Origin: an uncultured Anaerolineales bacterium
GTDB taxonomy: Bacteria; Chloroflexota; Anaerolineae; B4-G1; SLSP01
Length of the DNA stretch: 64,000 nt
Reading direction: 5' to 3'
NCBI GenBank assembly: GCA_964437445.1
Contig: CAYTGR010000019.1
Span: 5,502 to 69,501 of the forward strand
Position numbers and translations under genes: made by a program. Under the pieces are notes generated by a model. That model did no database searches and had not been told where the DNA came from. It saw nothing but the letters and a program-made list of their open reading frames with translations. Below, one piece after another: positions 1,625-49,219 of this stretch (its first letter is position 1; each line of letters opens with the position of its first letter).

Positions 1625-1666
1625 AGTTACCTCTTGGTGAAAAATTAAACGCCGGCCAGGGGCGTT

Positions 1667-3577: not shown

Positions 3578-3954
3578 AAATCGTCGTGACTCCTTCCCAC
3601 TCGTCTATGGTGTCTTCTCAATCTTATTGGGGGGCAGGTTGTCATGAGGCGCTTTAGCGCCGTTTTCAGCGCGCTCAAGTGCGCTACGACAAACCCTTGC
3701 CCCGCTTTTTGAGCAGATGCTCTCTATGTGAGCTACGACTGGCCAGTGCCGGTCAAGTACTTCATGCGATTGGCCCTTCGTCGTTCGCCTCAATCTTACC
3801 ACAACTCTGCCGGTTCGTGGTAGTGACTTTGGTCGCCCTGGCTTATGGTTGCTCTTCTGTCAGAATGTGCTAATCTACGCCCAATGGCTGGCTACTGGCG
3901 CGCCCCCTCGGCGGGCGACAGGCATAAAATCCGGGGAGCACAGGTTGATGCTTT

Positions 3955-33728: not shown

Positions 33729-33747
33729 TGCCAGGTCAACGTTTCAT

Positions 33748-34794
33748 TCAACGTTTGGTGGAAGCCGTCATGGCGCGCATTCCATCACGGGTATATTCTG
33801 TGTCTAACCATAGTGCGAACAACAATAATTGCATACCTGACAGAAATAACAACGCAGCCAGCAAGGCACTGGTGGCGGAAGCCGTCCCCACCAGCAGCCG
33901 GTAGACCACCAGGTAGAGGCCCAATGGCAATCCTATGGCGCACAGACTCAAGCCGACCATGTAAAACAGGAGCAGGGGGTGGAAGTCGCGGATCATATAT
34001 TTTTCCCGCAGTCGCCATAAAAACCCCTTCAACAGATACCAGCTCATGGAGGGGATCACCTGCCAGAGCCGGATGCCGGATTTCTCGCCAATGCCATAAA
34101 CCGGGCTGACCGGCACATTGACGACGGGCAGGTTGAAGACATTAAGATGGATCAGCATGGAGTTTTCAAATTCGTAGCCCCGGCTGATCTTATCCAGCGG
34201 CAGCATTTTGAGTGCCCGCAGTGAAACGGCTGTATATCCACCCTGGGCGTCGGCGATATGCCAGTAGCCAGAAGCGATTTTGGTCCAAAGCGAAAGGATG
34301 TTGTTCCCAAAGTAGCGATAACGGGGCATTTTTTCCCAGGCTTCGCCGGTGAAGAGGCGATTGCCTTTAACGTAATCGGCTTCGCCTCTAATCACCGGCT
34401 CAATGACCGAAGCCAGTTCGGCCGGTGCCATTTGGGCATCGCCCGCCATGACCGCCATGACATCCAGCCCCAGGGCTATGGCGCGGCGATAGCCCGAAAT
34501 CACGGCCCCGCCGACTCCTTGATTGACCGGATGGCGGATGAGCTCCAGTTCGGCGTGTATCCGACCGCGATAGCTTTCCACTATTTCAGCGGTGTGATCT
34601 TGACTGGCATCATCTACGACCACAATGTAGTCCACAAAGGGAGGCATGGTTTCCAGGACCCGGCCGATCAATTTTTCTTCATTGTGGGCGGGTACCACCA
34701 CTCCTACATGGGCACCTTCATACATGTTAAATAACAGTTCCTTGTTTTTTTGATTTTGACGGCAATAACTTGCTCCCAGGGCACCGGAGCTCAT
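33748..34794 (-). CDS. GT2 polyprenyl-phosphate glycosyltransferase (GtrB/CsbB/DPM-like) with two C-terminal TM helices
   Basis: VGVVVPAHNEE...VVDDASQDHT...NQGVGGA...ADAQGGY are GT-A motifs, with a hydrophobic C-terminal tail. Start is uncertain: ATG at 34794, 34842 or 34725. Confidence 0.7.
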   Translation of the reverse strand: MSSGALGASYCRQNQKNKELLFNMYEGAHVGVVVPAHNEEKLIGRVLETMPPFVDYIVVVDDASQDHTAEIVESYRGRIHAELELIRHPVNQGVGGAVISGYRRAIALGLDVMAVMAGDAQMAPAELASVIEPVIRGEADYVKGNRLFTGEAWEKMPRYRYFGNNILSLWTKIASGYWHIADAQGGYTAVSLRALKMLPLDKISRGYEFENSMLIHLNVFNLPVVNVPVSPVYGIGEKSGIRLWQVIPSMSWYLLKGFLWRLREKYMIRDFHPLLLFYMVGLSLCAIGLPLGLYLVVYRLLVGTASATSALLAALLFLSGMQLLLFALWLDTEYTRDGMRAMTASTKR

Positions 34795-34810
34795 CTGTTT
34801 GGCGAATCCC

Positions 34811-36022
34811 TTACAGTAATTCCTTGTGCTTCTCTTCCGCAAACCGCCGTAGCCCCTTGATGTGCTGCTCCGGGGTTTCGGTGTTGGCCTGGAAGGCCTC
34901 TTGCACGGCTTTCTCCCACCGGGCTAAGGCATTGCGCAGCTCTTCCCAGAGGGCCGCCAGTTCGGAGTAGTAGAACGCCACCTGTTCATCCAGACTGGCC
35001 ATATGCTCGGCGACCTTTTGCCCGGTCAGGTCTTGGCGGCGCCAGCGATCTTCTTCGGTCACCAGCCGCTTCTGCCAGTCGCGTGCAAAGGCGGCCTGCC
35101 ATTCCTCCCATTGTCGTTTCAGCCGCTCTTCGGCCAGCCGCTGCATTTCGGTGCTCTCGCTTTGGCGCTTGTCTAACCGCGCCTGGAACGCTTCTAACGC
35201 CTCCAACGCCTGTTTGTTTTGATTGTAGAGCAGCGCGTATTTCTGAGTTTGTTCTACCAACCGGGCCAGCTCGGCGTTGACCCGCTCCGCCTGGTCAAAG
35301 TATTGTTTGATCCGTTGTTCACGCTGGAAATCGGAGACGCGCAGTTCTTCAATCTTGGGGTCGTAAGATTTGGCGATTTGGATGGCCTCTTCTACCCGGC
35401 CCGGCAACTTGCGGATGGCATCCTCCAGGCGCACCAGCTTGACGTTCAACTCGTCCACCGTCTTGCGCAGGGGCGGGAGTTCGCCCTCCAGGGCGGCAAG
35501 CCGGCGCGCATCGGCCCGGCGCTGTTCGTCCAGGTAGACAATCAGCTGCAGCCGGTCTTCGGTGCGTTTGGTGAGATCGGTCAACGCTCCTGAGAGCTGC
35601 TGAATCTGTGTCTGCAACCGCTGTTCACCGGCCTCGCGGGCTTTCAGCTGTTCCTCATACCGGAAGAAGGGGCGGATTTTCTTGTCCAGCTCCGCAACCT
35701 GGCTGCTTATGGCTTCCTGTTCCATACGCCGCAGCCGGTCGGATTCCGCTCGCTCGCGCCGGACCTGCTCGCGCAATTCTTCTACCATCCCGGTCAGGTC
35801 GCGGTGACTCTTTTCCACCATGCCCGGGTACTCATCGGTACGGCGGACGTCGGTCCGCAGCACGACGATCTCCTGGCGCAGCGTTTCCAGCTCCTTGGCC
35901 TGTGCCTCAATGACCAGATTTTGCTGCTCAAGGCGCTCCTGTAGCGCCAGAACGAGCGTTTTGTCTTTCTTGCGTTCTTCGTCTAACCAGCGGACTAATT
36001 GTTCCAGTTGCGTGATTTCCAT
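34811..36022 (-). CDS. Hypothetical long coiled-coil protein
   Basis: About 400 aa of heptad-rich Glu/Arg/Leu/Gln sequence. AAGGAG lies 7 nt upstream of the ATG at 36022. Confidence 0.5.
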   Translation of the reverse strand: MEITQLEQLVRWLDEERKKDKTLVLALQERLEQQNLVIEAQAKELETLRQEIVVLRTDVRRTDEYPGMVEKSHRDLTGMVEELREQVRRERAESDRLRRMEQEAISSQVAELDKKIRPFFRYEEQLKAREAGEQRLQTQIQQLSGALTDLTKRTEDRLQLIVYLDEQRRADARRLAALEGELPPLRKTVDELNVKLVRLEDAIRKLPGRVEEAIQIAKSYDPKIEELRVSDFQREQRIKQYFDQAERVNAELARLVEQTQKYALLYNQNKQALEALEAFQARLDKRQSESTEMQRLAEERLKRQWEEWQAAFARDWQKRLVTEEDRWRRQDLTGQKVAEHMASLDEQVAFYYSELAALWEELRNALARWEKAVQEAFQANTETPEQHIKGLRRFAEEKHKELL

Positions 36023-36135
36023 CGTTTCAACTCCTTCATCGTTACGGGTGAACAGTGGGTAGGGAATAGTCAACAGGTGCCGTCAGTCCACTGCCCTGTT
36101 CACTACTCACTGCTCACTGCCCACTGAAAACTAAA

Positions 36136-39100
36136 TCACCGTTTAAGCACCGGCCTGAGTTGAGCGTACTCCTCCGGCGTCAACAGCCGGATGCGCCAGG
36201 CGACCAATCCGTAGATTGCCAGCCCGCCCGCCAGGGCTACCAGGCGGCCCACCGGCAGTAAGGCGAGCGCCGCTGCCCCCATGGCCAGCCCCGCCAGGGC
36301 CGGTCGTGCCACGATGCGCTTCCAGCCGACCGCCCCGACCTGTCGCTGCAGGCCGATGGCGAAGGGTATCAGCAGCGCGAGCTCCGAGAGAATGGTGATC
36401 ACGGCCGAGGCCGGGTAGCCAAAGCGGGGGATGAACAGGAGGTTGGCGAGCACATTGAAGGCCAGGCCGATCACGAAGGCGCGCGTCAGGTAGCGCTGTT
36501 GGCCCAACGCGATGAGCACGTAGTTGGTCAGGCTGTTGATCCAGCCGATGGGAATGGACCAGATCATCAGTTGCAGCGCGATCATGGAGTGGGGGAGATA
36601 GGCCACGTCGCCTAAGATCAGGACCAGTTCTCGCGCCAGCAGCGTGCCGATGAGCGCGGCCGGCAGGGCCAGCGTCACCAGCAGCTTGACGCCGAGCCGG
36701 TAGGAGAAGAGCAGGGCGTTCTGATCCTCGCGGGCCTGCCGTGAGAGGACCGGAAAGACCGCCATCGTGAACATGGCCGGGATGATGTTGAGGGCGTCCA
36801 GAAATTTGTAGGCGGTGCTGTACCAGCCGACCACGGCGCTGCCCTGAATGGCTTCCAGGAGCACAACGTCCACTTTGAAGAAGAGCGTCGCCAGCAGATG
36901 GTTGAGCATCAGCGGCCAGGATTCGGCCATCATGGAACGGCGCAGTGCGCCGTCTGGCTCCCAGTGGGGCTTAAAGAAGAACTTCAGCGCGGCGCCGCCC
37001 AAAATGCCCATGGCCACCAGGTTGATGACGATGGAGGTGCCGGCCAGGCCGACCACTCCCCAGCCTAACAGGAGGACGGCGGCCCCCAACGCGGCCTTGA
37101 GCAGCGCGGAGACTGTGGAGATGGCGGCCGGGTATTCGGCCTTCTCGTAAGCGTAGAAGAGCGAGGTCAGCCCTTTGGCCAGCGAGCCCGGCACCAACCC
37201 GACGTAGAGCAGGGCGATGGCCGTGAGGGTCTGCGCGTTGAGCGCCGGCGCAATCAGCGTCTGGCGCAGCGCGAGGAGCCCCACCAGCAGCGGAATTCCC
37301 CCGATGCTGAGCGCCAACCGCACGGCCGTGGTGTTGAACAGGTAGCGGTTGCTCTGTTCCCGGTTGCAGGCCACCTCGCGGGTCAGATAGGCATCCAGCC
37401 CGAAGTTGGTGAGGATCTCAAACCAGCCGAAGATGACGATGGCGTAGTAGTAATCGCCGGCGTTGGCCGGACCCAGGATACGCAACATCAACGCGGCCAG
37501 GGCAAAGTCAAGCGCCCGGTTGAACAGGTTAAGGACAATCGGCGCGATGCTGTTTTTGGCGACCCGCTGAACGGTTTCGGTGCCGGCGGGTTCGCGGTAA
37601 CCGCGCCGCCAGCCCCACAGAAGTACCAGGAAGAGCCAGACCATCCCGGCCAGGAAGCTGGTGAAGGCACCAACTTTGACGCTGTCGGGGCTATAACGGA
37701 AGCGTACCGTCCAGGCTCCCGGCTCTAATGATACGCCGCGGAAGTTGCCGGCCACCCGTACGATCGGCACTTCCGTCTCCTGGGTCTCGTCGGTCCCGGC
37801 CGGCCGCACGAAGGCTTTCCAGCCGGGGGCGTAGGCGTCCAAGAGGACCAGCCAGGCGGGAAGGTCGGTCTGGGCCTCCACCACCACCTGGTTGATCTCG
37901 TAGGCCACGACGGACTGCGGCTGCGGCTCACCGCGCACCGGCGTGGCCGCCGACCCGCTGCCCGCGTTTCCCTCCACCATCACATAGAAACGCGGATCGT
38001 AGGTCTGGATAAGGGTTTGGATCGCCTCCACGTTGGGCACCACCAGCGTCGCCGATTGCGGCAGCGTGTAAGCGCGGGGCATCACTGCCAGGTTCTCGTA
38101 GACCCTTAGCTCGCCTTGCCGATAGACTTCTTTATACTTGGGCAGCGGGATTTCAATCTCACTGAGGATATACTTCACGTTAAGCAGGTCGGTCAGCGGG
38201 CTATCCAGGCTGTCAAAGCGGGTGAAGGGCGCGATGCGGTTGTATGGCAGCTCGCCCTGCGGCTCAATCCAGCCCATGTAGCGGGCATATTGCGCTGAGA
38301 AGAGGCTGTCATAGCCGCGCACGTCCTGAAAGCCAAAGAGCATCCCCGTGTTGGCGTTGAACGTCTTCGCGCCGAAGGGATCAAACGTGGAGAAGCGCCA
38401 GAGGCCCTGATCCTGCCGCAAAAATTCCACTACCGGTGGCGTCACGGTGAGCAGCGCGGGATCGGTAGCCGGATTGAAGCCGGCGCCGAAGGTCATTTTG
38501 TCCACTACCAGCACCACCACCGCCAGCAGTTCCCAGATCGGGCGGCCGCCCAAGCGCCGGGGCAGATAAATGGGACAGCGTGAGACGCGCAACACAATGC
38601 CGACGGTCAGCAGCATAAAGCCGGCCAACTGGATCCACGGGAAGAGGTACGAATAAAAGGCGCGGTGGTCGGGGAAAGCGTCGGATGCCAGCGCCAGCGC
38701 CCCAAAAGCACGTTCTATCCACGGTTCCACCTGCGCAAAGGCCCAGCGCGAGGCCCACAGCCCGGCCAGCAGCAAGATCCCGCTCCAGAAGGTCAGTGCG
38801 CCCAATGTGCTTACCCAGTTGGGAGTGGCATCTAACCATAAGATCCTTAATGCGGGCTGCGTAGTCCGTTGATTCGTTGGCTCGTTGGTTCGTTGGCTTG
38901 CTGATTCGCTGACCCGTTGCGCCCCGATCCCCGCGAGTGCCGCCATCGCCACCGTGAAGGGGAAGACCCAGCGGAAGGGCGAGTGGGACTGGTTCAGGAA
39001 GGGCAGGGCATAGACCAGCGCGTAAAGCGGCGTCCCAAACATACAGCCCAGCGAAAAAAGCGTCAACAACGTGAAAAACGGCACGTAGGGCTGTTTTAAC

Positions 39101-40305
39101 CAGTTGACCAGGCGGACCCTGATGCGTTGACTCGTTGATTCGCCGCTTTGCTGACTCGCCGGCTCGCCTTTGACCACGGCCAGCAGCGCCAGCAGGAGCG
39201 GCAGCACCCCCAGGTAGACGCCGCCCTCCACATAGTTCTTGATCCCCCAGAAGAATGAGTCAATCGGCTGGCCCTGGGCGTTGACCGTCGCCGGCACCAC
39301 AGCGCCGGTGAAGAGGTCCCGCAGGGTATGGTGGGCGGGGTTGCCGTAGAAGTTGGGGATCAGAAAGGTGATGAGGTGGCGCAGGGGGTAGGCCCAACTG
39401 CGCACCTGGCTCAACGTCACTGCGCCCTGGCGGAAACTGCCGCGTACCGTCTCGTAGAGCGGAATCAGCTGCACCGCGCCGAACCCCAGCCCTAACAATC
39501 CCAGCAGCGCCAGCATCATCAGGGGGGAACCGACCGCCGTCAGCCATTGGGTGCGCGGCGTCGTCGCGGCGGTGTAGACCAGCCGCCAGAGCGCAAACGC
39601 CCCCATCACCAACAGGACGAAATAGGTGATCTCGGCATGGCCGGCCAGTAATTGCAGCCCCAGGGCGGCTGCACCGAGCAACGCCCAGGGCAACGTTGCC
39701 GGTCCGCGGCCGCCGAAGGGAGCCCGCCGCACCGTCAGCTCTATCAGCGCCAGCAGCAGCGGCAGCCAGGAGGCGGCCGCCAGGATCATCGGATGGACGA
39801 CTGAGACGAGCAGGAAGCCGCTGAGCTCAAAGGTAATCCCGGCCAGCAGGGCCCCCAGCCGTCCCGTGCGCAACACCCGGACCAGCACGTACATCCAGAT
39901 GCCGGCCAGCCCTAATTGCACCACCGTAAAAATGCCGTAGGCGCGCGGTAAGGGGAAAAGATAATAGAGGATACTCAGCGGGTAAAGGCCCGAATGTTGC
40001 CCGTTGGCCAGAAACGGATGGCCGGTGAAAAGGTGGGGATCCCAGAGCGGCAGCTGGCCCTGCCGCAGCGCCTGGACGATAAATTGCTTCCAGAGATAAT
40101 TTTCCAGCACGAGATCGGCCAGCAGCCCATTTTGGGGGGCCGTGATTTCTGCCGCCGGGGTCGCCGAACGAAAGGGCTCAAAGCCGTAGTAAATATCACC
40201 GGGCAGGAGCGTTTTACTCCCCAGGGTGACCGGGGCAAACAACAGGAGGGGTAACAGCAGGAGCAGGACGAGACACGCCAGGTCAAGCCAGCGTTGTCGC
40301 GTCAT
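36136..40305 (-). CDS. Fusion membrane protein: YfhO-like GT-C glycosyltransferase (N-terminal ~890 aa) fused to a Wzx/PST-family (MOP superfamily) flippase domain (C-terminal ~480 aa)
   Basis: N-terminus has the YfhO-like pattern (GDIYYGFEPF...QLPLWDPHLFTGHPFLANGQHSGLYPLSILYYLFP). C-terminal 12-14 TM region resembles polysaccharide-biosynthesis flippases (ILGPANAGDYYYAIVIFGWFE...). ATG at 40305 overlaps the stop of the upstream GT2 gene (ATGA). Confidence 0.65.
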   Translation of the reverse strand: MTRQRWLDLACLVLLLLLPLLLFAPVTLGSKTLLPGDIYYGFEPFRSATPAAEITAPQNGLLADLVLENYLWKQFIVQALRQGQLPLWDPHLFTGHPFLANGQHSGLYPLSILYYLFPLPRAYGIFTVVQLGLAGIWMYVLVRVLRTGRLGALLAGITFELSGFLLVSVVHPMILAAASWLPLLLALIELTVRRAPFGGRGPATLPWALLGAAALGLQLLAGHAEITYFVLLVMGAFALWRLVYTAATTPRTQWLTAVGSPLMMLALLGLLGLGFGAVQLIPLYETVRGSFRQGAVTLSQVRSWAYPLRHLITFLIPNFYGNPAHHTLRDLFTGAVVPATVNAQGQPIDSFFWGIKNYVEGGVYLGVLPLLLALLAVVKGEPASQQSGESTSQRIRVRLVNWLKQPYVPFFTLLTLFSLGCMFGTPLYALVYALPFLNQSHSPFRWVFPFTVAMAALAGIGAQRVSESASQRTNEPTNQRTTQPALRILWLDATPNWVSTLGALTFWSGILLLAGLWASRWAFAQVEPWIERAFGALALASDAFPDHRAFYSYLFPWIQLAGFMLLTVGIVLRVSRCPIYLPRRLGGRPIWELLAVVVLVVDKMTFGAGFNPATDPALLTVTPPVVEFLRQDQGLWRFSTFDPFGAKTFNANTGMLFGFQDVRGYDSLFSAQYARYMGWIEPQGELPYNRIAPFTRFDSLDSPLTDLLNVKYILSEIEIPLPKYKEVYRQGELRVYENLAVMPRAYTLPQSATLVVPNVEAIQTLIQTYDPRFYVMVEGNAGSGSAATPVRGEPQPQSVVAYEINQVVVEAQTDLPAWLVLLDAYAPGWKAFVRPAGTDETQETEVPIVRVAGNFRGVSLEPGAWTVRFRYSPDSVKVGAFTSFLAGMVWLFLVLLWGWRRGYREPAGTETVQRVAKNSIAPIVLNLFNRALDFALAALMLRILGPANAGDYYYAIVIFGWFEILTNFGLDAYLTREVACNREQSNRYLFNTTAVRLALSIGGIPLLVGLLALRQTLIAPALNAQTLTAIALLYVGLVPGSLAKGLTSLFYAYEKAEYPAAISTVSALLKAALGAAVLLLGWGVVGLAGTSIVINLVAMGILGGAALKFFFKPHWEPDGALRRSMMAESWPLMLNHLLATLFFKVDVVLLEAIQGSAVVGWYSTAYKFLDALNIIPAMFTMAVFPVLSRQAREDQNALLFSYRLGVKLLVTLALPAALIGTLLARELVLILGDVAYLPHSMIALQLMIWSIPIGWINSLTNYVLIALGQQRYLTRAFVIGLAFNVLANLLFIPRFGYPASAVITILSELALLIPFAIGLQRQVGAVGWKRIVARPALAGLAMGAAALALLPVGRLVALAGGLAIYGLVAWRIRLLTPEEYAQLRPVLKR

Positions 40306-41045
40306 GCCGCCCACCGATCTGCGGGCGTTAGCTGGCGGTAGCGCCAACGCACCTGCCAGACTCGCAGCGCAGCTTCTAATTGCACCCGCAGACTCATCTT
40401 GGATTCCCCGCGCTGCCGGTCTGGAAAGAAGATGGGCACTTCTATGACGTGATACCCCAACCGCCAGGCGACGTAGAGCGTCTCCACTTGAAAGATATAA
40501 CCGTGGGAGACCACGCGCCCCACGCCGACGCCGCGCAAGGCTTCTGCCCGGTAGGCCCGGAAGCCACCGGTTGTGTCGTGCACCGGTACCCCCAAAAGCG
40601 TGCGGGTGTAAAAATTGGCCCAGGCCGAAAGCGCCTTACGCGCCCATCCCCAGCTGGCATCCGTGCCCCCGCCCTGAATATAGCGCGAGCCGATCACAAT
40701 ATCCGCCGCGGCCAACCCCGCCAGCAAGCGCGGCACATCCGTCGGCTGATGTGAGAAATCGCAATCCATCTGGACGATGGCGGTAGCGCCATGCTCCAAG
40801 GCATAGCGGAAACCGTCCACATAGGCCAGCCCCAGTCCGCGTGGCCCGGTGCGATGCAACACGTGAAGCTGGCCGATCCAGCGCTCCGCCAGCCGGTCGG
40901 CCACCTCACCGGTTCCATCCGGCGAAGCGTCGTCTACATAGAGCAGATGCAGGTTGGGTACCGGCAGCGCCAGCAACGCCTCGGCCATCGGTTCAACGTT
41001 GTCTGCTTCGTTATAGGTTGGGATGACCACCCACGGACCGTTCAA
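40302..41045 (-). CDS. Polyprenol-monophosphomannose / dolichol-phosphate mannose synthase-like GT2 (Ppm1/DPM1-like, soluble)
   Basis: VVIPTYNEADN...YVDDASPDGT...DCDFSHQP...TGGFRAYR are classic DPM1/Ppm1 GT-A motifs; 247 aa. Confidence 0.8.
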   Translation of the reverse strand: MNGPWVVIPTYNEADNVEPMAEALLALPVPNLHLLYVDDASPDGTGEVADRLAERWIGQLHVLHRTGPRGLGLAYVDGFRYALEHGATAIVQMDCDFSHQPTDVPRLLAGLAAADIVIGSRYIQGGGTDASWGWARKALSAWANFYTRTLLGVPVHDTTGGFRAYRAEALRGVGVGRVVSHGYIFQVETLYVAWRLGYHVIEVPIFFPDRQRGESKMSLRVQLEAALRVWQVRWRYRQLTPADRWAA

Positions 41046-41145
41046 ATTTCAGGCCTCCACTCTTGATAAACATGCCGACCCATACAAGCAAACAGGGCCT
41101 GGAAGGGGGTGTGACCTTCCCGGCCCTGTGAGCGATCATCCGGGG

Positions 41146-42039
41146 TCAGGCCTGGGGATGATTGCTGAACAGCACCTGTCGTAATTGCGTTAATCCTCCC
41201 TCGCGCGGGATCTGGACCGACGAAAGGAGCTGAATGTCAAAAGTGATGCGGGGTAGGGGCGTGCCGTCGCTTTGTTTGCCGCTTTCCCAATCCCGGTAAG
41301 GGTAGAAGAAAGAGATCGCTTCGTTGAGGCGTTGGTGGAGCCGCCCCATAACAATATAGCCTTGAGCAGCCGGGACGACGATTAAAAACTGGTAAATATC
41401 CAGCTGGCCTACAAAAGGATCCGTCGTGATCACTTCGGCCGCCGTATTTTGCAGAATCAATGCCACCGCCCGGAGGACATCGTCGTGAGTCACGAAGCCG
41501 TAGGCATCGCTGAAGGCCTCCATCCCCTGGAGCCGCAGTCCGATGAAGGATAAATGCGCGTCGGCGGCCACCCGTTCCATTTGCTCTTCCAGCAGCACCG
41601 AAATGGGCAATCCGGTCACAGGGTGGAGCAAGGTGTCCAGGTTACTGCGGCGCAGGATGTTGCGTACCCGATACCGCAGTTCCTGCACATCAAAGGGCTT
41701 AGTGATGTAATCTACCCCGCCCAGTTCCAGGCCCATCAGACGGTCAATCCGGTCGCGGCGTTCCGTCAGGAAAATGATGGGGATGTGCTCGGTGCGCCGC
41801 TGAGAGCGTAACCGCCGGCAGACCTCGTAGCCATCAATATCCGGCAGGTGGATGTCTAACACTACCAGGTCAGGCGGTCGCTCGGTGGCCATGGTCAGCG
41901 CATCCTGACCCCAGGCGACATGGGAGACTTTGTAGCCTAACGAGGCAAAGTAAGCCGACAGCATATCCGCTGTATTGGGATCGTCTTCCACGATGAGGAT
42001 ATGGCGGGGAACGTTTTCTTCACCCACTGTCGCGCCCAT
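41146..42039 (-). CDS. Response regulator: receiver domain plus degenerate GGDEF-like domain (GG(D/E)EF motif absent)
   Basis: ILIVEDDPNTADML...LVVLDIHLPDIDG...KPF receiver, then DTLLHPVTGLP and RLQGMEAFSDAYGFVTHDDVLRAV, which resemble a GGDEF N-terminal half without the catalytic motif. Confidence 0.6.
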   Translation of the reverse strand: MGATVGEENVPRHILIVEDDPNTADMLSAYFASLGYKVSHVAWGQDALTMATERPPDLVVLDIHLPDIDGYEVCRRLRSQRRTEHIPIIFLTERRDRIDRLMGLELGGVDYITKPFDVQELRYRVRNILRRSNLDTLLHPVTGLPISVLLEEQMERVAADAHLSFIGLRLQGMEAFSDAYGFVTHDDVLRAVALILQNTAAEVITTDPFVGQLDIYQFLIVVPAAQGYIVMGRLHQRLNEAISFFYPYRDWESGKQSDGTPLPRITFDIQLLSSVQIPREGGLTQLRQVLFSNHPQA

Positions 42040-42058
42040 AATTGTTTGCTGTGCCTTT

Positions 42059-42697
42059 TTAACCGATAGGTTCTTTGTAGACGTGGAACAGACAAACGTC
42101 GTGCTTCATGCCCATGCACTTGACCTGATCCACTCGGAAGGTGCGGCCGCCACTGACCCAACGCATGGCCTCTTCCAGGATGCCGACGGCGATATAACCA
42201 CCGGGACGGTCGACCTCGCGGCCCCAGCACATTGAACAGCGGTCAATGTAGTACTCAAAATACTCACCACCGGGGTCTTTCACGTAGGATTTTTGGTCGC
42301 TGAGTGAGTCAAAGACTTTGGCGACGGCCGGCAGCCCAAACTTGAGCTTGGCGGGCAGCGGCAGTACCCGGAAGGCCAGGTCGCTGGCGCCGACCAGGGC
42401 TCCAAAGTTGGATAGCCCTTGGGCGAAGAGCACGCGCCCGGAGCGCAGGGCCAACCCGCGGCCACCGCGTGGCCCATACATTTCCTCCAGCCCGCGGTTG
42501 AGGGCCGAAATGTAGGAAAAATCAAAACCCTTATCCATGTTGTCGGGCGGGGGGTTGTCAATGAACTGGGAGAGGCCGGAGATGTTAAGGACAGCGTTAA
42601 GCCCGTTGCGGCCCATGATTTCCTCCAGCGCATTGAGGAGAATCAGGGCGAAGCGGTTTGGGTAATAGAATCCACTGGGTTCAGGAGCATTTGTCAT
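42059..42697 (-). CDS. V4R-domain protein (4-vinyl reductase-like small-molecule-binding domain)
   Basis: 212 aa with the DRCSMCWG CxxC motif typical of V4R. Sits immediately downstream of a Roadblock/LC7 gene. Confidence 0.6.
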   Translation of the reverse strand: MTNAPEPSGFYYPNRFALILLNALEEIMGRNGLNAVLNISGLSQFIDNPPPDNMDKGFDFSYISALNRGLEEMYGPRGGRGLALRSGRVLFAQGLSNFGALVGASDLAFRVLPLPAKLKFGLPAVAKVFDSLSDQKSYVKDPGGEYFEYYIDRCSMCWGREVDRPGGYIAVGILEEAMRWVSGGRTFRVDQVKCMGMKHDVCLFHVYKEPIG

Positions 42698-42712
42698 GGC
42701 GGCCCTCCTTAT

Positions 42713-43090
42713 CTACCTGAGAATCGTGGCCAGCTCATCGGCAGCCCGGCGCATGTCAAGGAAGAGTAGGCCTAACTTGGCCTGTTGTCGCGCCAGCACG
42801 GTTAATACGGCCTCTTCCCCGACGGCCCGGAGAATCACGTAGCCCTTTTCCCCTTTGACATAAACCTCGTCCAACATGCCGCGTCCCAACTCACTGGCGA
42901 TGCGCTCGCCCAGCGAGAGCATAGCGGCGGACATGGCGGAAACCCGGTCTTCTTCTACTCCCTGGGGAAGAGATGAGGCTATGGTGAGACCATCTACACT
43001 GACAATCGCGGCGGCTTCAACATCGGGGCTGCTCACTTGCAAATCGCGCAACCGTTCCACCATTTGTTCGGTACGAGATCTATTCGCCAT
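42713..43090 (-). CDS. Roadblock/LC7 (MglB-like) domain protein
   Basis: 125 aa with AAIVSVDGLTIASS...GYVILRAVGEEAVLTVL, matching the Roadblock/LC7 fold signature. Confidence 0.7.
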   Translation of the reverse strand: MANRSRTEQMVERLRDLQVSSPDVEAAAIVSVDGLTIASSLPQGVEEDRVSAMSAAMLSLGERIASELGRGMLDEVYVKGEKGYVILRAVGEEAVLTVLARQQAKLGLLFLDMRRAADELATILR

Positions 43091-43417
43091 CCTTGTTTAC
43101 CTCCATGTGGAGATTGAGTTTCTCGGTCCGGGGGGCCCCGCAACCGGGAAGTTATAGGTTATGAAAAGGTTACCATAGAATGAGGTCATGTCAAGCTATA
43201 CTTGTCAAGATGTCCCAATTTTAGCATAAAATGACTACGTCTGCAACAGGGAACGGTTAAATCAAGTATACCACAAAAAATAGAAAGCGTGGCACAGGGG
43301 ACACAACCCGGTACTTTTCAAGGGGAAAATTTCGTGGGGGGGATTTCCTAACTTCCCCCGCTGGCGGTAAGGCAAGCTGGTAGACAAGTAACGAGAGGCT
43401 CAATATGGATAATGGGC
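43091..43417. promoter_or_regulatory. AT-rich intergenic promoter region upstream of the Roadblock-V4R-RR operon; contains a direct repeat TGTCAAG(N8)TGTCAAG
   Basis: GC content drops well below the window average. No ORFs. Repeated TGTCAAG half-sites read from the sequence. Confidence 0.35.
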
Positions 43418-44059
43418 CTATGGGCGAGGGGATTCTGGAGCCAGCAGCCCGTGAAAAATGATCTGCAACCCGGCGTCCAACCGGGCGTACCAGGAATGGG
43501 GTGACGGCGCTGCGGGCAGCAGACAGGTGTACACAACGAAGAGGCGAATAAAATAGGCGGCCAGCAGCTCGCCGGCGATGTCGGCATCCACGTCTGGGTT
43601 GAATTCGCCCTGCCGCTGTCCTTCACGGACCATCGCGGCCAGCACCTGTGCGGGAGTTGGCCCGGTGGGGAGCGGGTAGACCTGGGCGTGCATGAAGATC
43701 TGCTGCGCGACATCGCGGTAGGGGAAGAGCTCGTCGCCCATCGCCCGGAGCGTGCAGGTAATCCGCTCGGTAGCCGGTTGCCCTGGAGCCGGTGGCTCCG
43801 CCAAAAGTGATTGGACGCGGGCGAAAGTCAGCGTCACCAGCAACGTCTGTTTGCTCTCAAAATAGTTGAAGAAAGTGCCTTTGGCGATGTCGGCCGCCGC
43901 GGCAATTTCTTCCACAGTGGTGGCCTCAAACCCTTTGGCGTGAAACAATCGCTCCGCCGCCGTTAACAGGCGGCGGCGGGTTTCTTCTTTGCGGCGCTCC
44001 CGGCGGGAGCTGGCCTGGATGGGTGTCTCTGGTATCAATGCTATCATGACCCCGGTCAA
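43418..44059 (-). CDS. TetR/AcrR-family transcriptional regulator
   Basis: N-terminal HTH: RLLTAAERLFHAKGFEATTVEEIAAAADIAKGTFFNYFESKQTLL. Confidence 0.8.
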   Translation of the reverse strand: MTGVMIALIPETPIQASSRRERRKEETRRRLLTAAERLFHAKGFEATTVEEIAAAADIAKGTFFNYFESKQTLLVTLTFARVQSLLAEPPAPGQPATERITCTLRAMGDELFPYRDVAQQIFMHAQVYPLPTGPTPAQVLAAMVREGQRQGEFNPDVDADIAGELLAAYFIRLFVVYTCLLPAAPSPHSWYARLDAGLQIIFHGLLAPESPRP

Positions 44060-44182
44060 AATTGACTCTGGTCATTGTACCACAACGGGGTTAAAAATCA
44101 ACTTCCTCAGGCGAGGAACGGTGCTGACCAACGACTCGCGCTTCAGCCGCAGCACGGAGTCCTGTCGGCTGGAAACGCTGGC

Positions 44183-44292
44183 TGGACATTTTTCTGTACT
44201 CTTTTACCTTTCACGGCCTACTGCTCTCTGCTCACTCCCTTACTGGTTTCTGTTCAAGGTTGGACATTTTTCTATACTCTTTTACCTTTCAC
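44183..44292. repeat. Two 32-bp direct repeats (TGGACATTTTTCTGTACTCTTTTACCTTTCAC and TGGACATTTTTCTATACTCTTTTACCTTTCAC) separated by a 46-bp spacer
   Basis: Read directly: 44183..44214 and 44261..44292, one mismatch. AT-rich, non-palindromic, between the TetR start and the CPBP gene end. Confidence 0.6.
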
Positions 44293-45073
44293 AGGGCGCC
44301 CTGCGAGGTAACAGCCAGTACACCAAAACCAGAGTAACCAGCAAAACAACGCCATAAATTGGCTCTCCTCCACGATCCGGTACATTCAATAAACCTTTGT
44401 CTTGCAGGAGATTCCATGCATAATGAAAACCTATCACACAACCTAAATTGCCTCGTTTGATGACCATCCCGCCCAAAACTATGCTAATCAGAAACGCATA
44501 GACAAAAGCGAACCAATAGTAGTCGGGGTTAATCAGGTGTATGGCCGTAAAGAGACTTGCAGATATTATTAACCCTACCCCTATACTCACACGGTGTCTG
44601 AGCACAGAGAGTATGTAGCCGCGAAAGAGCCCCTCTTCCGCTATGGCGACTATCAACCAAAAGAACAACAGCGCCCCCACATCAACACTTGTAGTGGCGT
44701 GCCCTATTTGATCGAGACTCATTTCTTTTGTAATGAATACCATGCCCCCTGCTACCAAACCAATGGACAAACTCCCCCATACTATCCCCAGTAACAAATC
44801 CATCCAAAACCCTTTATCCGGCCAACAGACGCCGATAAAACTTAACGGTTTGCGTTCCAGCCATAACTCCAACAGAAGGCTGATTATTATCGCCAGATGA
44901 AAAGCGTATTCCCCTATTGCTTCAACCTTAAGCAATGAAGCGAGTAGAGCAAACACTATCATCAGAATTATCACAAACACAAATACCCGCAGGATTTTCC
45001 AACCGGGACGCAATTCTTTGTTGCTGGAATAGAACAAGCTCATGGGTCTTATTTCCTCCAATTTCATGTACAT
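44282..45073 (-). CDS. CPBP-family intramembrane metalloprotease (CAAX protease / Abi family)
   Basis: EEGLFRGYIL, FTAIHL and HYAWN motifs in a polytopic membrane protein. Gene is AT-rich relative to the rest of the window. Confidence 0.75.
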   Translation of the reverse strand: MYMKLEEIRPMSLFYSSNKELRPGWKILRVFVFVIILMIVFALLASLLKVEAIGEYAFHLAIIISLLLELWLERKPLSFIGVCWPDKGFWMDLLLGIVWGSLSIGLVAGGMVFITKEMSLDQIGHATTSVDVGALLFFWLIVAIAEEGLFRGYILSVLRHRVSIGVGLIISASLFTAIHLINPDYYWFAFVYAFLISIVLGGMVIKRGNLGCVIGFHYAWNLLQDKGLLNVPDRGGEPIYGVVLLVTLVLVYWLLPRRAPCER

Positions 45074-45081
45074 AGTATAGC

Positions 45082-45216
45082 GCCCAACTGCTGGCGCTTC
45101 AGCTGCACCGCGCAGCGCAGCGGAGCGGCGTCAGGTGGAACTCCCCCTGGCTGGCTGCACCAGCCTCCCCCGGATGAACGGGCCGTTGGCCCGTTCTTAG
45201 CAAATGCTTGTTAGCC
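45082..45216. repeat. Copy A of a ~135-bp repeated structured intergenic element (copy B at 49083..49219), immediately 5' of a minus-strand start codon
   Basis: The two copies align at roughly 80% identity with an identical 48-bp core (GCGCAGCGCAGCGGAGCGGCGTCAGGTGGAACTCCCCCTGGC). Hairpins are preserved by compensatory differences. Confidence 0.6.
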
Positions 45217-45945
45217 CGCCTTTTTCAGCCAAGGAACTTGAGTGTTTGCAGCAGTATTGAACCTTTCAATGCCCCGTCTGTGTTTAATCCGAGCATAAAT
45301 GCAGTGGACTTGAAAGGAAATAACAAACATAACTATACCACCGACGATAAGATTGCTGTGAGGAACAGTATCTTGGGACAAAAATTGTACCGTAATGATC
45401 ATAAGGCCAGTAAGAGCAAATCCGTTTACTATGCCGATAAATAGTTGGTGGGTTCCAAGGGGATATATCCACCATAACCTTTTGTTGATTTTTTCAACCA
45501 AGTTTATTTTTCGTGGTGAAATTGGACTGACTTCAGCAAAAGAGTTGTCAATATAAAAAATGTATGGTTTTTCGGTCTCTCTACCCTGAAACAGACGGTA
45601 TTTCAACAAATTTAATCCAAGGGCGAAGTTGGAGAGGTCAATGTTTCTGTTAACAATAGAATCTTGAATAACAATTCCAACTAATATGGCGAATACAAGC
45701 AAGCCCGCAACGCTTGGATACGATAGCAGCAAATTGCCACTGTTCACTTGGAAAAGCACGATGATGGCCCCTGTCACCGCAGACAGTAAAGTGAGATAGA
45801 AATTGAAAATCCCATTGATCGCGTTTTCCGTATGAATATATAAGTTTGATAGAGACGCATACTCTGCCTTTAAAATATCAATCGTTTCTTCCCTCTGTCC
45901 TGATTGACTAATTGGTGAGATATTGCTCTTGGGCTTCTTGTCCAT
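45211..45945 (-). CDS. Hypothetical membrane protein (AT-rich, likely horizontally acquired)
   Basis: 244-aa ORF with four or five hydrophobic helices. Asn/Ile/Lys-rich composition, unlike the surrounding high-GC genes. Confidence 0.4.
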   Translation of the reverse strand: MDKKPKSNISPISQSGQREETIDILKAEYASLSNLYIHTENAINGIFNFYLTLLSAVTGAIIVLFQVNSGNLLLSYPSVAGLLVFAILVGIVIQDSIVNRNIDLSNFALGLNLLKYRLFQGRETEKPYIFYIDNSFAEVSPISPRKINLVEKINKRLWWIYPLGTHQLFIGIVNGFALTGLMIITVQFLSQDTVPHSNLIVGGIVMFVISFQVHCIYARIKHRRGIERFNTAANTQVPWLKKAG

Positions 45946-46028
45946 AGGTTGAGATCCTCTAAGGCAATTTAGTAAGGTGGGCTAACGGCTGGCGTCGGCT
46001 CAAGCCGTAAGTTGGGCGGCTCTTTGAG

Positions 46029-49000
46029 CTACGGCTGCCAGTTCCTGAGCACGAGGGGTATGTAGACATACCAGCGTGGTTTTTCGGATACTTTGATCAC
46101 AAACTCCTGCTCAGCGAATGTCCCCGTCCTATCTGTAGCGCGCAGCGTAACCGTACAAGTACCCGTATTGGCCGGTGTGCCGGCCAGCGTCGCCGTGCCG
46201 TTGCCGTGATCGGTCAGCGTCAGCCAGGCTGGGAGCGTGGAGGCGGTGATGGTCAGCGCGTCGCCGTGGATGAGGTCGGGGTCACCGGCGACGACAGCAT
46301 AGGCGTAGGGCGTGCCTTGCGTGGCGGTGAGCACCGGCGTGCTGGCAAAGTACGGCGCGTCGTTGACGTTGGCGACGGTGATGGTGAACGCCTGCGTGTC
46401 GGTCAGCCCGCCGCTGTCGGCCACCCGTAGCACCACCGGATGCTGGCCCACGTTGGCGTTGGAGGGCGTGCCGGAGAGGGTTGCCGTTCCGCCGCCGTGA
46501 GCGGTGAACGTGAGCCAGGCGGGCAATGTCGGTGCTGTGATGGTCAGAATATCGCCATAGATCAAGTCGGAGTCGGTGATGATGGCGGTATAAGTGTAGA
46601 TCATACCCTGCGTCGCAGTTGTGACCGGTGGGCTGGTGAAGCCCGGCGCATGGTTGGGACCCTTCTCATACGCCCCCATATCCACTATGGCGCTCCCGTT
46701 GCCGTCGCCATCCACAATGCGGGGGTTGCCGTCCAGGTCCGTGGTGACAGATACCGGCACGGCGCTGTTGATTCCGGCGTCAATCGCCGGGGAGGTCAGT
46801 TGCAGGCGCAGGTTGCCGCCGGCCGGGTTCACAAAACGCGGGTCGGCGTCAATGTTGCCGCCGCCATTGGTGCCGCAGGCAGAGTTCCAACTGCCCGAGC
46901 CGCCGCAGCCCTGGATGTCGCTGTAGGAGATGACCGGGATCCAGGTGTCGTCGTCATTGTAGATTTCGGACCCGCTGGAGGCCGAGTTGCCCCACAGAAT
47001 AACGTTCCTCAACTGCGGGACGCTGTAAGTATAGTTGGCTATCCCCCCGCCATTGTAGGTGGCCGTGTTGTCATTGAAAGTGACGTTTGACAGCGTCGGT
47101 CTGCTATTCGCCGCATTGCACATCCCACCGGCGATCAGGCCGGCTGCATTGCCCCTGAATATGACGTTTGACAACGTTGGGTTGCTGTAGAAACGGGTGT
47201 ACATCCCGCCCCCGCTCTGATAGGCCGTGTTACTGTCAAAGATGACGTTCGTAAGCGTTGGGTTGCATTCAACATTGTTGTACATTCCCCCGCCGGATTC
47301 AGCCTCGTTGCCGCTAAAGATAACGTTCCTCAGCGTGGGGCTGCTGCCCGACTGACCGAACATCCCGCCGCCATCGTAGGTGGCCGTGTTGCCATTGAAG
47401 GTCACGTCCGTCAGCGTGGGGCTGCTCGACTCGTTTTCCATTCCGCCACCCTTTAAGCCCGCCGTGTTGCCATTGAACCTCACGTCTGATAGCGTCGGGC
47501 TACTCACGTTGTTGCACATTCCACCGCCATCATAGTCGGCTCTGTTTCCATCAAAGGTGACATCCGTCAGCGACGGGCTGCTGGAGTTGTTATTGTACAT
47601 CCCACCGCCAGAACCTGCGGAGTTCTCGTTGAAGGTGACGGCTGTCAGTGTCGGACTGCTGGCAGTGTTGTATATCCCACCGCCATAGCTGGAGGCTATG
47701 TTGCCCTCAAAGGTGACGTCCGTCAGCGTCGGATTACTGGAATCATTGCACACCCCGCCACCCCCCTTGTGAGAACCAGTCGCCGAGTTGCCAGAGAAGG
47801 TGACATGGATCAGCGTCGGGTTGCTCTCATAGTTGGACATTCCACCGCCGTTGCTGTAATTACCATCGCCGGTAGCCGAGTTGTCCGAGAAGGTGACGTT
47901 CGTTAGTGTCGGGTTGCTGGCATAGTTGAACATTCCGCCACCGTAGAATGCCGTGTTGTCACTGAAAGTGACCTCCGTCAGTGTTGAACTGCTGTCAAAC
48001 CCGTTGTACATCCCGCCGCCGGTGTTGCCTGCTGTATTGCCGCTGAAGGTGATATTCATCAGCGGTGAGGCACTATGGTAATTGTACAACCCCCCGCCAT
48101 CGTTGGCAACGATATTCCCGTCAAAAGTGATGTCCGTCAGCGAGGGGCTGCTCTCATAATTGTACATCCCGCCGCCATCGGCTGCCTGGTTATAGCTGAA
48201 GATGACACTCGTCAGTGTCGGGCCGCTGCTGTTGTTGAACGCCCCGCCGCCAGAATTGCTGGCAGAGTTCCCGCTAAAGGTGACGTTTGCCAGCATTGGG
48301 CTGCTCTCATAGTTGTATACCCCGCCGCCGCGGGTAAAGGCCACGTTGCCCTCGAAGGTGACATCCGTCAGCGTGGGGCTGCTCCACTGATTGAGCATCC
48401 CGCCGCCGTACGCAGCCGCGTTGCCACTGAAGATGAGCGCCGTCAGCGTCGGGCTGCTCTCGTCGTTGAACATCCCGCCGCCGAGGTAATGTGGCCAGTT
48501 CTCCTCGGCCTCGACAGCATCGGCCAGCCCGGCGGTGATGAAAAAGCCATCCAGCACGGCGGTCTCGGTTACACCGTTGCTCATGACAACATGGTAGGCG
48601 TTCGTGCCGGTGATGTTGGCTGTGGTGGTCACCACGCCATGGGGATCGGTAGAGTCATTGCCGTCAATGTCACCGCTGAGGACCGTGGGGTGGGCCCGCC
48701 AGTCCCGCTGGGTGCGCAATGTCTCGGTGGCGACAAAGCCGCCATAGATGGCGACGCCGTTCCTCAGCGTAAAGGTGGCCTCCCGGTCGTTCGGATCGGT
48801 GGTGGGTTTGTGTACTCCCGCCTGGACCCAAATCTCGTCGCCGCTTTGGGCATTGTGCAGCGCAGTTTGCAGCGTACATGCGGTAGACCAGGAATCCCCG
48901 CAGGGCCACGCTGTGCTGCCATTCGGCCTGGCGCGAATCACGCTGGAGGTGGCGCGAGCAATGTCAGGGCCTGTGAACGTTGTGACCAGTAATGATACCC

Positions 49001-49046
49001 CCAGCAGAAGGGCTACTACTGTAAAGAAATGCATTATCTTTGCCAT
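46029..49046 (-). CDS. Large secreted right-handed parallel beta-helix repeat protein with two C-terminal Ig/cadherin-like repeats
   Basis: Signal peptide MAKIMHFFTVVALLLGVSLLV with AAGGAGG 5 nt upstream of the ATG at 49046. More than 20 tandem ~23-aa repeats of the form SSPTLT(D/N)VTF.GN.A..GGGMYN. Two ~95-aa repeats follow (TITAPTLPAWLTFTAHGGGTATLSGTP / TITASTLPAWLTLTDHGNGTATLAGTP). Confidence 0.7.
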   Translation of the reverse strand: MAKIMHFFTVVALLLGVSLLVTTFTGPDIARATSSVIRARPNGSTAWPCGDSWSTACTLQTALHNAQSGDEIWVQAGVHKPTTDPNDREATFTLRNGVAIYGGFVATETLRTQRDWRAHPTVLSGDIDGNDSTDPHGVVTTTANITGTNAYHVVMSNGVTETAVLDGFFITAGLADAVEAEENWPHYLGGGMFNDESSPTLTALIFSGNAAAYGGGMLNQWSSPTLTDVTFEGNVAFTRGGGVYNYESSPMLANVTFSGNSASNSGGGAFNNSSGPTLTSVIFSYNQAADGGGMYNYESSPSLTDITFDGNIVANDGGGLYNYHSASPLMNITFSGNTAGNTGGGMYNGFDSSSTLTEVTFSDNTAFYGGGMFNYASNPTLTNVTFSDNSATGDGNYSNGGGMSNYESNPTLIHVTFSGNSATGSHKGGGGVCNDSSNPTLTDVTFEGNIASSYGGGIYNTASSPTLTAVTFNENSAGSGGGMYNNNSSSPSLTDVTFDGNRADYDGGGMCNNVSSPTLSDVRFNGNTAGLKGGGMENESSSPTLTDVTFNGNTATYDGGGMFGQSGSSPTLRNVIFSGNEAESGGGMYNNVECNPTLTNVIFDSNTAYQSGGGMYTRFYSNPTLSNVIFRGNAAGLIAGGMCNAANSRPTLSNVTFNDNTATYNGGGIANYTYSVPQLRNVILWGNSASSGSEIYNDDDTWIPVISYSDIQGCGGSGSWNSACGTNGGGNIDADPRFVNPAGGNLRLQLTSPAIDAGINSAVPVSVTTDLDGNPRIVDGDGNGSAIVDMGAYEKGPNHAPGFTSPPVTTATQGMIYTYTAIITDSDLIYGDILTITAPTLPAWLTFTAHGGGTATLSGTPSNANVGQHPVVLRVADSGGLTDTQAFTITVANVNDAPYFASTPVLTATQGTPYAYAVVAGDPDLIHGDALTITASTLPAWLTLTDHGNGTATLAGTPANTGTCTVTLRATDRTGTFAEQEFVIKVSEKPRWYVYIPLVLRNWQP

Positions 49047-49082
49047 TTTACCCTCCTTGTGGATAAGACGATAGAGCCAGCT

Positions 49083-49219
49083 GCCCAACGGCCTGTGCTT
49101 CACCTGCGCCGCGCAGCGCAGCGGAGCGGCGTCAGGTGGAACTCCCCCTGGCCGGCGAGGCCAGCCTTCCAACCGGAGGAACGTGCAGGGCTACGTTCTT
49201 AGCGAACGCTTGTTATCTG
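49083..49219. repeat. Copy B of the ~135-bp repeated structured element (see 45082..45216); overlaps the last 6 codons of the res-like gene and ends 33 bp upstream of the beta-helix gene start
   Basis: Direct alignment with copy A. Confidence 0.6.

Follow-up and report, generated by a model that had tools for sequence, protein, structure and literature searches.

How does a Roadblock/LC7 protein act at a locus that encodes no small GTPase? The question is raised by three genes on the minus strand of a 64,000-nucleotide stretch of DNA, here called the window, from an uncultured Anaerolineales bacterium (assembly GCA_964437445.1, contig CAYTGR010000019.1, positions 5,502–69,501). The trio lies at window positions 41146–43090 and encodes, from first to last gene, an MglB-type Roadblock/LC7 protein (42713–43090; 125 residues), a stand-alone V4R protein of the Bet3/H-NOX/PoxR fold (42059–42697; 212 residues) and an orphan response regulator (RR) composed of a receiver (REC) domain and a degenerate GGDEF domain (41146–42039; 297 residues). 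The original prediction, made from the letters of the window, placed all three genes and called their domains correctly, and proposed an operon that might work as a GTPase-independent module. We find that the genes form a compact operon with its own conserved promoter. As for the GTPase, we tentatively favour another answer over a GTPase-free module: the trio may be the regulator half of a split MglA-type small-GTPase network, with the GTPase encoded in trans.

We compared the trio with 85 related Anaerolineae loci (1.3 Mb in total), 59 of which carry a Roadblock gene. Most of them contain either Roadblock–V4R–RR or V4R–RR alone, and the recurrent gene order is [TetR]-Robl-V4R-RR-[GT2]-giant-coiled coil, where GT2 is a family 2 glycosyltransferase. 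Roadblock and V4R are separated by 15 nucleotides (nt) in the window and by a median of 19 nt in the related loci; the corresponding figures for V4R and RR are 19 and 25 nt, and spacing of 15–25 nt is kept class-wide. A GGAGG ribosome-binding site lies 9 nt ahead of the Roadblock ATG. No description of a Roadblock–V4R–RR operon was found in the literature that we searched. The TetR-family gene expected upstream of the trio is present (43418–44059, minus strand; TetR_N 60 bits), and its linkage is loose, since it adjoins the trio in some relatives and is 4–5 kb away or missing in others.

The 327-bp region between the TetR and Roadblock genes (43091–43417) had been described as a strongly AT-rich promoter region with a TGTCAAG direct repeat. 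It is AT-rich to a moderate rather than a strong degree, with about 45–48% GC compared with 60% for the window. Both copies of the repeat are there (43189–43195 and 43203–43209) and read CTTGACA on the coding strand (43195–43189 and 43209–43203), but the bare 7-mer TGTCAAG does not exceed chance, with 5 copies in the window versus 5.75 expected. What makes the repeat meaningful is its conservation among orthologous upstream regions and not its copy number: CTTGACA occurs in 51 of 57 such regions, and in 26 of the 57 it is accompanied at a fixed distance by TGGTAACCT, which starts ~20 nt downstream of it.

The gene-proximal CTTGACA copy holds the −35 box of a sigma-70-type promoter that is kept in relatives (43167–43194, minus strand). 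This promoter consists of TTGACA (43194–43189), a 16-nt spacer and an extended −10 element, TGgTAACCT (43175–43167), and its elements sit about 80–100 nt ahead of the Roadblock ATG. Owing to the atypical −10 box (TAACCT), a generic promoter consensus scan came up empty in front of the Roadblock gene, and the promoter was recognized only by comparison of the 57 orthologous regions. Judging from the position of the −10 box, the transcript would begin near 43160 and have a 5′ leader of roughly 70 nt; the leader matches no RNA family in an Rfam scan of 40900–44200. The second, upstream CTTGACA copy (43203–43209, minus strand) is probably lineage-specific, since most relatives have a single copy at the promoter position.

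At the other end of the trio, past the RR stop codon, a hairpin (CAGGGCC..GGCCCTG) followed by TTTGCTTG is a likely intrinsic terminator or attenuator (41085–41130, minus strand), with a predicted free energy of −35.1 kcal/mol and a z-score of −2.8. The CAGGGCC hairpin with a clear T-tract is likewise found 3′ of the RR gene in the window's clade, and hairpins with z < −2 lie downstream of RR in 38 of 70 loci. With a conserved promoter ahead and a conserved terminator behind, the trio of this clade is probably a separate transcription unit. Loci of the Ardenticatenales type have a promoter-like element, TTGATACAAT, downstream of the RR gene.

The first protein of the operon matches Robl_LC7 (PF03259) along the complete profile (positions 1–91 of 91) with 70.5 bits against a cut-off of 23, and matches solved Roadblock structures with E-values of 3.5e-33 to 1e-4. 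The nearest of these is 7f8m_A (E 3.5e-33). The sequence relatives of 7f8m are Thorarchaeota proteins, and it is solely through them that we place this structure in the Thorarchaeota; the entry is not named in the text of the Asgard paper, and a literature search on 7F8M gave nothing. Identity is 53% over the full length to the Thorarchaeota protein P0414 (locus L086) and 45% to the cyanobacterial protein P0469. Similarity to MglB is weak (E about 1e-4), the Thorarchaeota family being far closer than any bacterial MglB. The 53% identity suggests either a transfer between Asgard archaea and Anaerolineae or an unusual constraint on the sequence.

The absence of a GTPase from the locus, as originally noted, extends to the window and to the relatives. 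Only two open reading frames in the 64-kb window contain a Walker-A motif, those of an ABC transporter and an AAA_33 kinase-like protein, and the window therefore has no P-loop small GTPase. A motif search combined with tblastn found no small GTPase within 10 kb of the trio in any of the 85 related loci; tblastn matches in L053 and L058 turned out to be translation factor IF-2, encoded downstream of NusA. An MglB is considered coupled if it is encoded no more than four genes from an MglA-family GTPase (PMC4316618). By this definition the window Roadblock is an orphan MglB. Orphans account for 328 of the 749 MglB-family proteins in that 2014 census, by which time none had been characterized.

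Further afield, each of Roadblock, V4R and RR has relatives encoded together with small GTPases, which speaks against the GTPase-independent reading. The nearest Roadblock relatives outside the Anaerolineae, those of Thorarchaeota and cyanobacteria, lie next to Ras-like GTPases. In a Thorarchaeota genome of 3.2 Mb the homologue ends a cluster of the order Ras-like GTPase-TPR-1287 aa-Robl, in which the 287-residue neighbour is a TPR protein unrelated to the V4R family profile, and the cyanobacterial homologue belongs to an operon that reads Robl–GTPase (224 residues)–REC (126 residues). For V4R and RR, eight contigs of another Chloroflexota lineage bear all or part of one PATAN–GTPase–V4R–RR operon. 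It encodes PATAN, a small GTPase of 177 residues, an alpha/beta hydrolase, a V4R member of the window subfamily (31% identity to the window protein), proteins resembling a sugar nucleotidyltransferase and Shikimate_DH, a REC-GGDEF protein with the motif GGDNF (43% identity to the RR of the window) and a giant GAF kinase. We found no support for the general statement in the original prediction that small GTPases are the usual companions of V4R proteins.

Since V4R and GTPase share one operon in that lineage, V4R looks like a co-component of the GTPase and not a substitute for it, and for this reason we favour a split network, its GTPase encoded in trans, over a GTPase-free module. Split MglA–PATAN and MglB genes are common in Chloroflexi (PMC4316618). 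The supplement of the same paper lists for Anaerolinea thermophila one orphan MglB (ANT_03760) and one MglA–PATAN pair without MglB (ANT_06780); a literature search for these locus tags gave no match.

The strongest competitor, which we nevertheless consider somewhat unlikely, is that the V4R protein has replaced the GTPase as the switch of an ancestral Robl–GTPase–REC operon, so that the trio signals internally to the glycosylation machinery encoded next to it. The gene order fits this proposal, as Robl–X–REC equals the cyanobacterial order with V4R in the GTPase slot, and all 59 Roadblock-bearing loci lack a GTPase within 10 kb. A Robl–V4R–GT2 arrangement with neither GTPase nor RR is also known, and orphans are frequent in the MglB family (PMC4316618). 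A replaced GTPase is, however, at odds with the operon in which V4R accompanies one, with the orphan MglA of A. thermophila (PMC4316618) and with the high sequence conservation between the window Roadblock and its GTPase-linked relatives.

The V4R protein shows the two-layer alpha/beta fold common to MJ1460, PoxR, DmpR, Bet3 and H-NOX. It scored 14.2 against Thor-TRAPPC3, 13.9 against H-NOX, 13.1 against DmpR, 12.7 against TRAPPC5, 12.2 against both MJ1460 and PoxR, 12.1 against Bet3 and 11.1 against BcsD. Relatives within this superfold bind phenols, palmitate or heme. The Pfam V4R score of the window protein is 23.2 bits, below the cut-off of 31; most relatives are annotated as PF02830, and more distant members reach 35–44 bits. 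NCBIfam has no model for the protein. In an alignment of 52 sequences Cys154, Cys157 and Cys194 of the Cys154-x-x-Cys157...Cys194...Cys202 cluster are invariant and Cys202 is at least 90% conserved. The cluster corresponds to the zinc site of PoxR, MopR and Thor-TRAPPC3, and a zinc site is thus predicted here; zinc-binding cysteine sites have been described for PoxR and Thor-TRAPPC3 (PMC10933270).

Two features set the family apart from its better-known counterparts. Residues 74–88 form an invariant Arg/Gly-rich motif without an identifiable equivalent in H-NOX or in the V4R sensor domains of PoxR, MopR and DmpR. The family alignment contains neither an invariant His nor the YxSxR motif of H-NOX; with no histidine invariant, a role as heme sensor of the H-NOX kind was ruled out. 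The comparison with H-NOX proteins, which work with partner kinases or GGDEF/EAL enzymes, also breaks down at the partner, since the cyclase of the trio is dead (see below).

The V4R protein has 4141 matches in 90% clusters, the best 120 of which are 59–96% identical to it and 211–213 residues long with little variation. Across orders identity is 58–83%, and length is nearly constant at 210–213 residues. At least 554 species-level genomes contain it; almost all of these are labelled Anaerolineae or Chloroflexota, and one is labelled Oceanobacillus. No Roadblock–V4R fusion is present among the 150 best V4R cluster representatives. Fusions of the V4R subfamily to other domains were observed: to TIR, as TIR-V4R and Ser/Thr kinase-TIR-V4R, and to DUF433 (P0254 in L091, P0264, P0278, P0266 and P0383). 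They suggest that the subfamily is a general sensor module, possibly used in defence-like proteins too. One contig (CAYWFK010000006.1; L094, positions 1–5639) carries at least seven tandem paralogous V4R genes of the window subfamily, each encoding ~212 residues, next to cytochrome b/Rieske and succinate dehydrogenase genes.

Coupling of V4R with receiver proteins recurs in no fewer than three independent gene contexts: the PATAN–GTPase–V4R–RR operon described above, an HK-REC-hydrolase-V4R operon (HK, histidine kinase) and, in one Anaerolineae lineage, the order MiaB–V4R–lipoprotein–large REC protein (L050, L054, L057, L065, L077, L080 and L082). Fusions of REC to MetOD1 (V4R-like) and to NitrOD3 (Roadblock-like) are found in archaea (PMC5847659). 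Together, the repeated contexts and the archaeal fusions support direct cross-talk. In the MiaB–V4R lineage the lipoprotein has Big_7, SH3 and CARDB domains, and the protein that follows (813–1148 residues) combines a receiver-like N-terminus with a C-terminus resembling IS200-type Y1 transposases.

The receiver domain of the RR (41665–42000, minus strand; Pfam residues 14–125; Response_reg 98.3 bits) has an intact phospho-acceptor pocket, and its residues Glu18/Asp19, Asp62, Thr92 and Lys114 do not vary among 40 homologues. No kinase is conserved in the vicinity of this orphan RR, for whose subfamily NCBIfam contains no model. The only kinase candidates in the window are two large hybrid histidine kinases, REC-PAS-5xGAF-HisKA-HATPase and dCache-HAMP-PAS-HisKA-HATPase-REC, at 3955–8433 and 15397–18288; neither is kept near the trio in relatives.

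A fully conserved receiver pocket in an orphan RR could mean that this protein and an unlinked kinase are the only real signalling pair, Roadblock and V4R being accessory or unrelated genes that share the promoter. The patchy composition of the operon agrees with such an ordinary two-component output: beside V4R, some lineages lack Roadblock and others lack RR. We regard it as distinctly unlikely, because V4R, with its 58–83% identity across orders, is better conserved than RR, the short gaps are held throughout the class, and the Robl–V4R pair recurs in an independent context. That context is the PrsW–Robl–V4R–GT2 order of a distant lineage, which has no RR. Loci of the Ardenticatenales and Promineifilaceae types retain V4R–RR and have no Roadblock gene, so Roadblock is either dispensable there or encoded elsewhere.

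The RR's C-terminal half was predicted to be a GGDEF-like domain lacking the catalytic motif, and residue-level comparison bears this out. GGDEF (PF00990) is matched by the whole RR with 22.9 bits, just short of the cut-off of 23.8, and by the C-terminal domain alone with 24.6 bits, and all 18 family members tested match it. An AlphaFold2 model (pLDDT 86) has WspR, DgcR and PleD as its top Foldseek matches over the full length. When the domain (41149–41625, minus strand) is aligned by profile with two solved cyclases, 8c05 and 3ign, Asp214-Ile-Tyr-Gln-Phe218 stands where GG[DE]EF is expected, Arg169-Leu-Gln171 in place of the metal-binding Asp-x-Asp, Ser177 in place of the guanine-binding Asn and Thr205-Thr-Asp-Pro208 in place of the RxxD motif of the I-site. 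Among the 40 homologues the GGDEF-motif and metal columns are not conserved as acidic residues. Conservation lies instead on YGFVTHDDVLRA, FVGQ and SFFYP..DWE, the last of which starts at Ser243 and forms a family-specific invariant block.

With the motif, metal, guanine and I-site residues replaced and conservation shifted elsewhere, the RR reads as a phosphorylatable regulator with a pseudo-enzyme output, and nothing in its sequence speaks for cyclase activity or I-site binding of cyclic di-GMP (c-di-GMP). Both roles were thus ruled out by the alignment. A module in which the RR controls polysaccharide synthesis as a working diguanylate cyclase or I-site receptor, in the manner of WspR, PleD, PopA or PelD, is for the same reason hardly credible, although the RR shares its fold and architecture with WspR, DgcR and PleD and its gene adjoins polysaccharide and glycosylation genes. 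A distant homologue, in L095, still has GGDNF, which points to a progressive loss of the motif. PopA (REC-REC-GGDEF) and PelD retain the RxxD I-site and bind c-di-GMP. The trio RR resembles them in keeping the GGDEF fold as a non-catalytic signalling domain and differs in having lost the I-site as well.

Conservons of the actinobacterial type comprise a membrane kinase-like sensor (CvnA), a Roadblock protein (CvnB), a DUF742 protein (CvnC) and a GTPase (CvnD). That the trio is a fragment of one is effectively refuted, because the Roadblock protein, despite its match to CvnB5 (3leq; E 8e-10), has its nearest relatives in Thorarchaeota and cyanobacteria, the locus has a CvnB-like gene only, with V4R, REC-GGDEF and TetR as neighbours, and neither the window nor any relative has a CvnA-type kinase, a DUF742 protein or a CvnD GTPase. 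The original prediction had linked a conservon origin to GTPase genes adjacent in relatives; such genes do exist in distant relatives, and the system to which they belong is of the MglA/PATAN type.

A possible target of the trio is indicated by the genes that follow it on the same strand. Next comes a GT2 enzyme of the polyprenyl-phosphate sugar synthase type (40302–41045; Glycos_transf_2 95 bits); the NCBIfam models of dolichyl-P hexose transferase and PpgS match it weakly. In 10 loci of the Anaerolineales type the gap between RR and GT2 is 2–8 nt or the genes overlap. The giant gene (36136–40347) encodes a 1403-residue fusion of a YfhO-type GT-C glycosyltransferase (YfhO 49.5 bits) with a Wzx/MOP flippase (Polysacc_synt 107 bits); its synteny holds in almost every related locus, and this unusual single polypeptide is conserved across Anaerolineae. 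In most related loci that reach far enough it is followed, as in the window, by a gene for a 420-residue coiled-coil protein (34811–36073), which has no Pfam match and only SMC-like coiled-coil noise in NCBIfam and may be a scaffold of the glycosylation machinery. A second GT2 (33748–34842) and a PMT_2 GT-C glycosyltransferase (31692–33728; PMT_2 39 bits) together fill 31692–34842; a PMT_2 gene likewise comes after the giant gene in L003, a distant relative.

All three kinds of component of a glycosylation system, that is, GT2 lipid-sugar synthase, flippase and GT-C transferase, are present at the level of domain matches, and the downstream genes read as a parts list of polyprenyl-phosphate-dependent extracytoplasmic glycosylation. 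The GtrA/GtrB/GtrX and CsbB/GtcA/YfhO systems are similar in that the window has a GT2 synthase-like enzyme, a Wzx-type flippase, YfhO and a PMT-type GT-C. They differ in that flippase and YfhO are one protein in the window, which adds the conserved coiled-coil protein and the signalling trio. To our knowledge, no regulator of the trio's kind has been found with three-component extracytoplasmic glycosylation systems.

Taken as the regulator half of a split network, the trio might operate as follows. The GTPase, probably with a PATAN partner, would be encoded elsewhere in Anaerolineae genomes, and the Roadblock dimer would serve as its binding platform, acting like MglB as a GTPase-activating protein or a scaffold. 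MglB itself contributes no catalytic residue. V4R would provide a small-molecule input, and its ligand could be hydrophobic or a lipid phosphate; the neighbouring genes prompt the speculation that it is a lipid-phosphate carrier. REC would add a phosphorylation input from an unlinked kinase, and the pseudo-cyclase domain would transmit through protein contacts, neither making nor binding c-di-GMP. What is controlled is probably the place or the timing of envelope glycosylation and of filament wall growth, as suggested by the synteny, the tight RR–GT2 coupling in one clade and the Robl–V4R–GT2 variant. The sugar nucleotidyltransferase-like gene of the GTPase-containing PATAN operon is in line with a link to glycosylation.

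By analogy, the trio would work most like an MglB-type regulator module equipped with an accessory sensor in the style of H-NOX or PoxR. Its resemblance to MglA/MglB/PATAN modules (Group 5 MglA, Wuichet and Sogaard-Andersen 2014; RomR/MglC-type receiver links) lies in an MglB-family Roadblock encoded with a receiver protein and in relatives that adjoin PATAN and small GTPases in cyanobacteria and in another Chloroflexota lineage. Unlike these modules, the trio locus contains neither a GTPase nor a PATAN gene, its tight neighbour is V4R, which has never been reported in Mgl modules, its receiver is fused to a pseudo-GGDEF domain, and its context is glycosylation instead of motility.

Several observations weigh against a split network aimed at glycosylation. 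No GTPase was found in the window or in the 1.3 Mb of related loci, so the in-trans partner is a postulated one, and the ligand, the kinase and the physical interactions of the trio are postulated as well. The orphan MglB of A. thermophila is a candidate orthologue of the window Roadblock. V4R–RR loci of the Ardenticatenales and Promineifilaceae types contain no Roadblock gene. The synteny with glycosylation genes could be explained by vertical inheritance within one class, and in the window's clade a terminator splits the trio from those genes.

A more elaborate version of the split network, which we consider quite doubtful, is that Roadblock and the Bet3-fold V4R protein form a heteromeric platform like TRAPP or Ragulator that regulates an MglA-type GTPase encoded elsewhere and is gated by ligand and by receiver phosphorylation. 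It is suggested by resemblance at the level of folds and by the tight adjacency of the Robl–V4R pair (15 nt), which is kept across a bacterial class. Close known counterparts of the trio are the Thorarchaeota Roadblock (7f8m family), Thor-TRAPPC3 (7yh2) and the eukaryotic TRAPP and Ragulator platforms. If correct, the platform would be a bacterial case of the partnership between a Bet3 fold and a roadblock/longin fold, so far seen as a trait of Asgard archaea and eukaryotes; its Roadblock subunit shares 53% identity with the Thorarchaeota protein whose crystal structure was determined as that of a eukaryote-like component. A Roadblock–V4R complex, if it exists, would be relevant to how GTPase regulators of the TRAPP and Ragulator types arose.

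Nearly half of the MglB/Roadblock family consists of orphan genes, and one of these now has class-wide partners in a V4R sensor and a pseudo-cyclase that is phosphorylatable. Together with envelope glycosylation of the filamentous Anaerolineae as a plausible target, these defined partners make the function of an orphan Roadblock directly testable. That parts of an MglA/PATAN network can lie in separately encoded halves also advises caution in calling a module GTPase-independent from local context alone.

The remaining neighbours of the trio, beyond the TetR gene, differ in character. Positions 44200–46000 form a low-GC island (35–49% GC compared with 60%) that was probably acquired horizontally; it encodes a CAAX/Rce1-like protease (44282–45073) and a 244-residue membrane protein without a family (45211–45945). 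It is followed by a gene for a 1047-residue secreted protein (46029–49172) with Chlamydia-PMP-type repeats and He_PIG, Big_9 and cadherin-like Ig domains, which is probably a surface adhesin, and by a type III restriction–modification pair (49199–55595), in which the N6_N4 methylase gene (52434–55595) overlaps that of the ResIII helicase/nuclease subunit (49199–52453).

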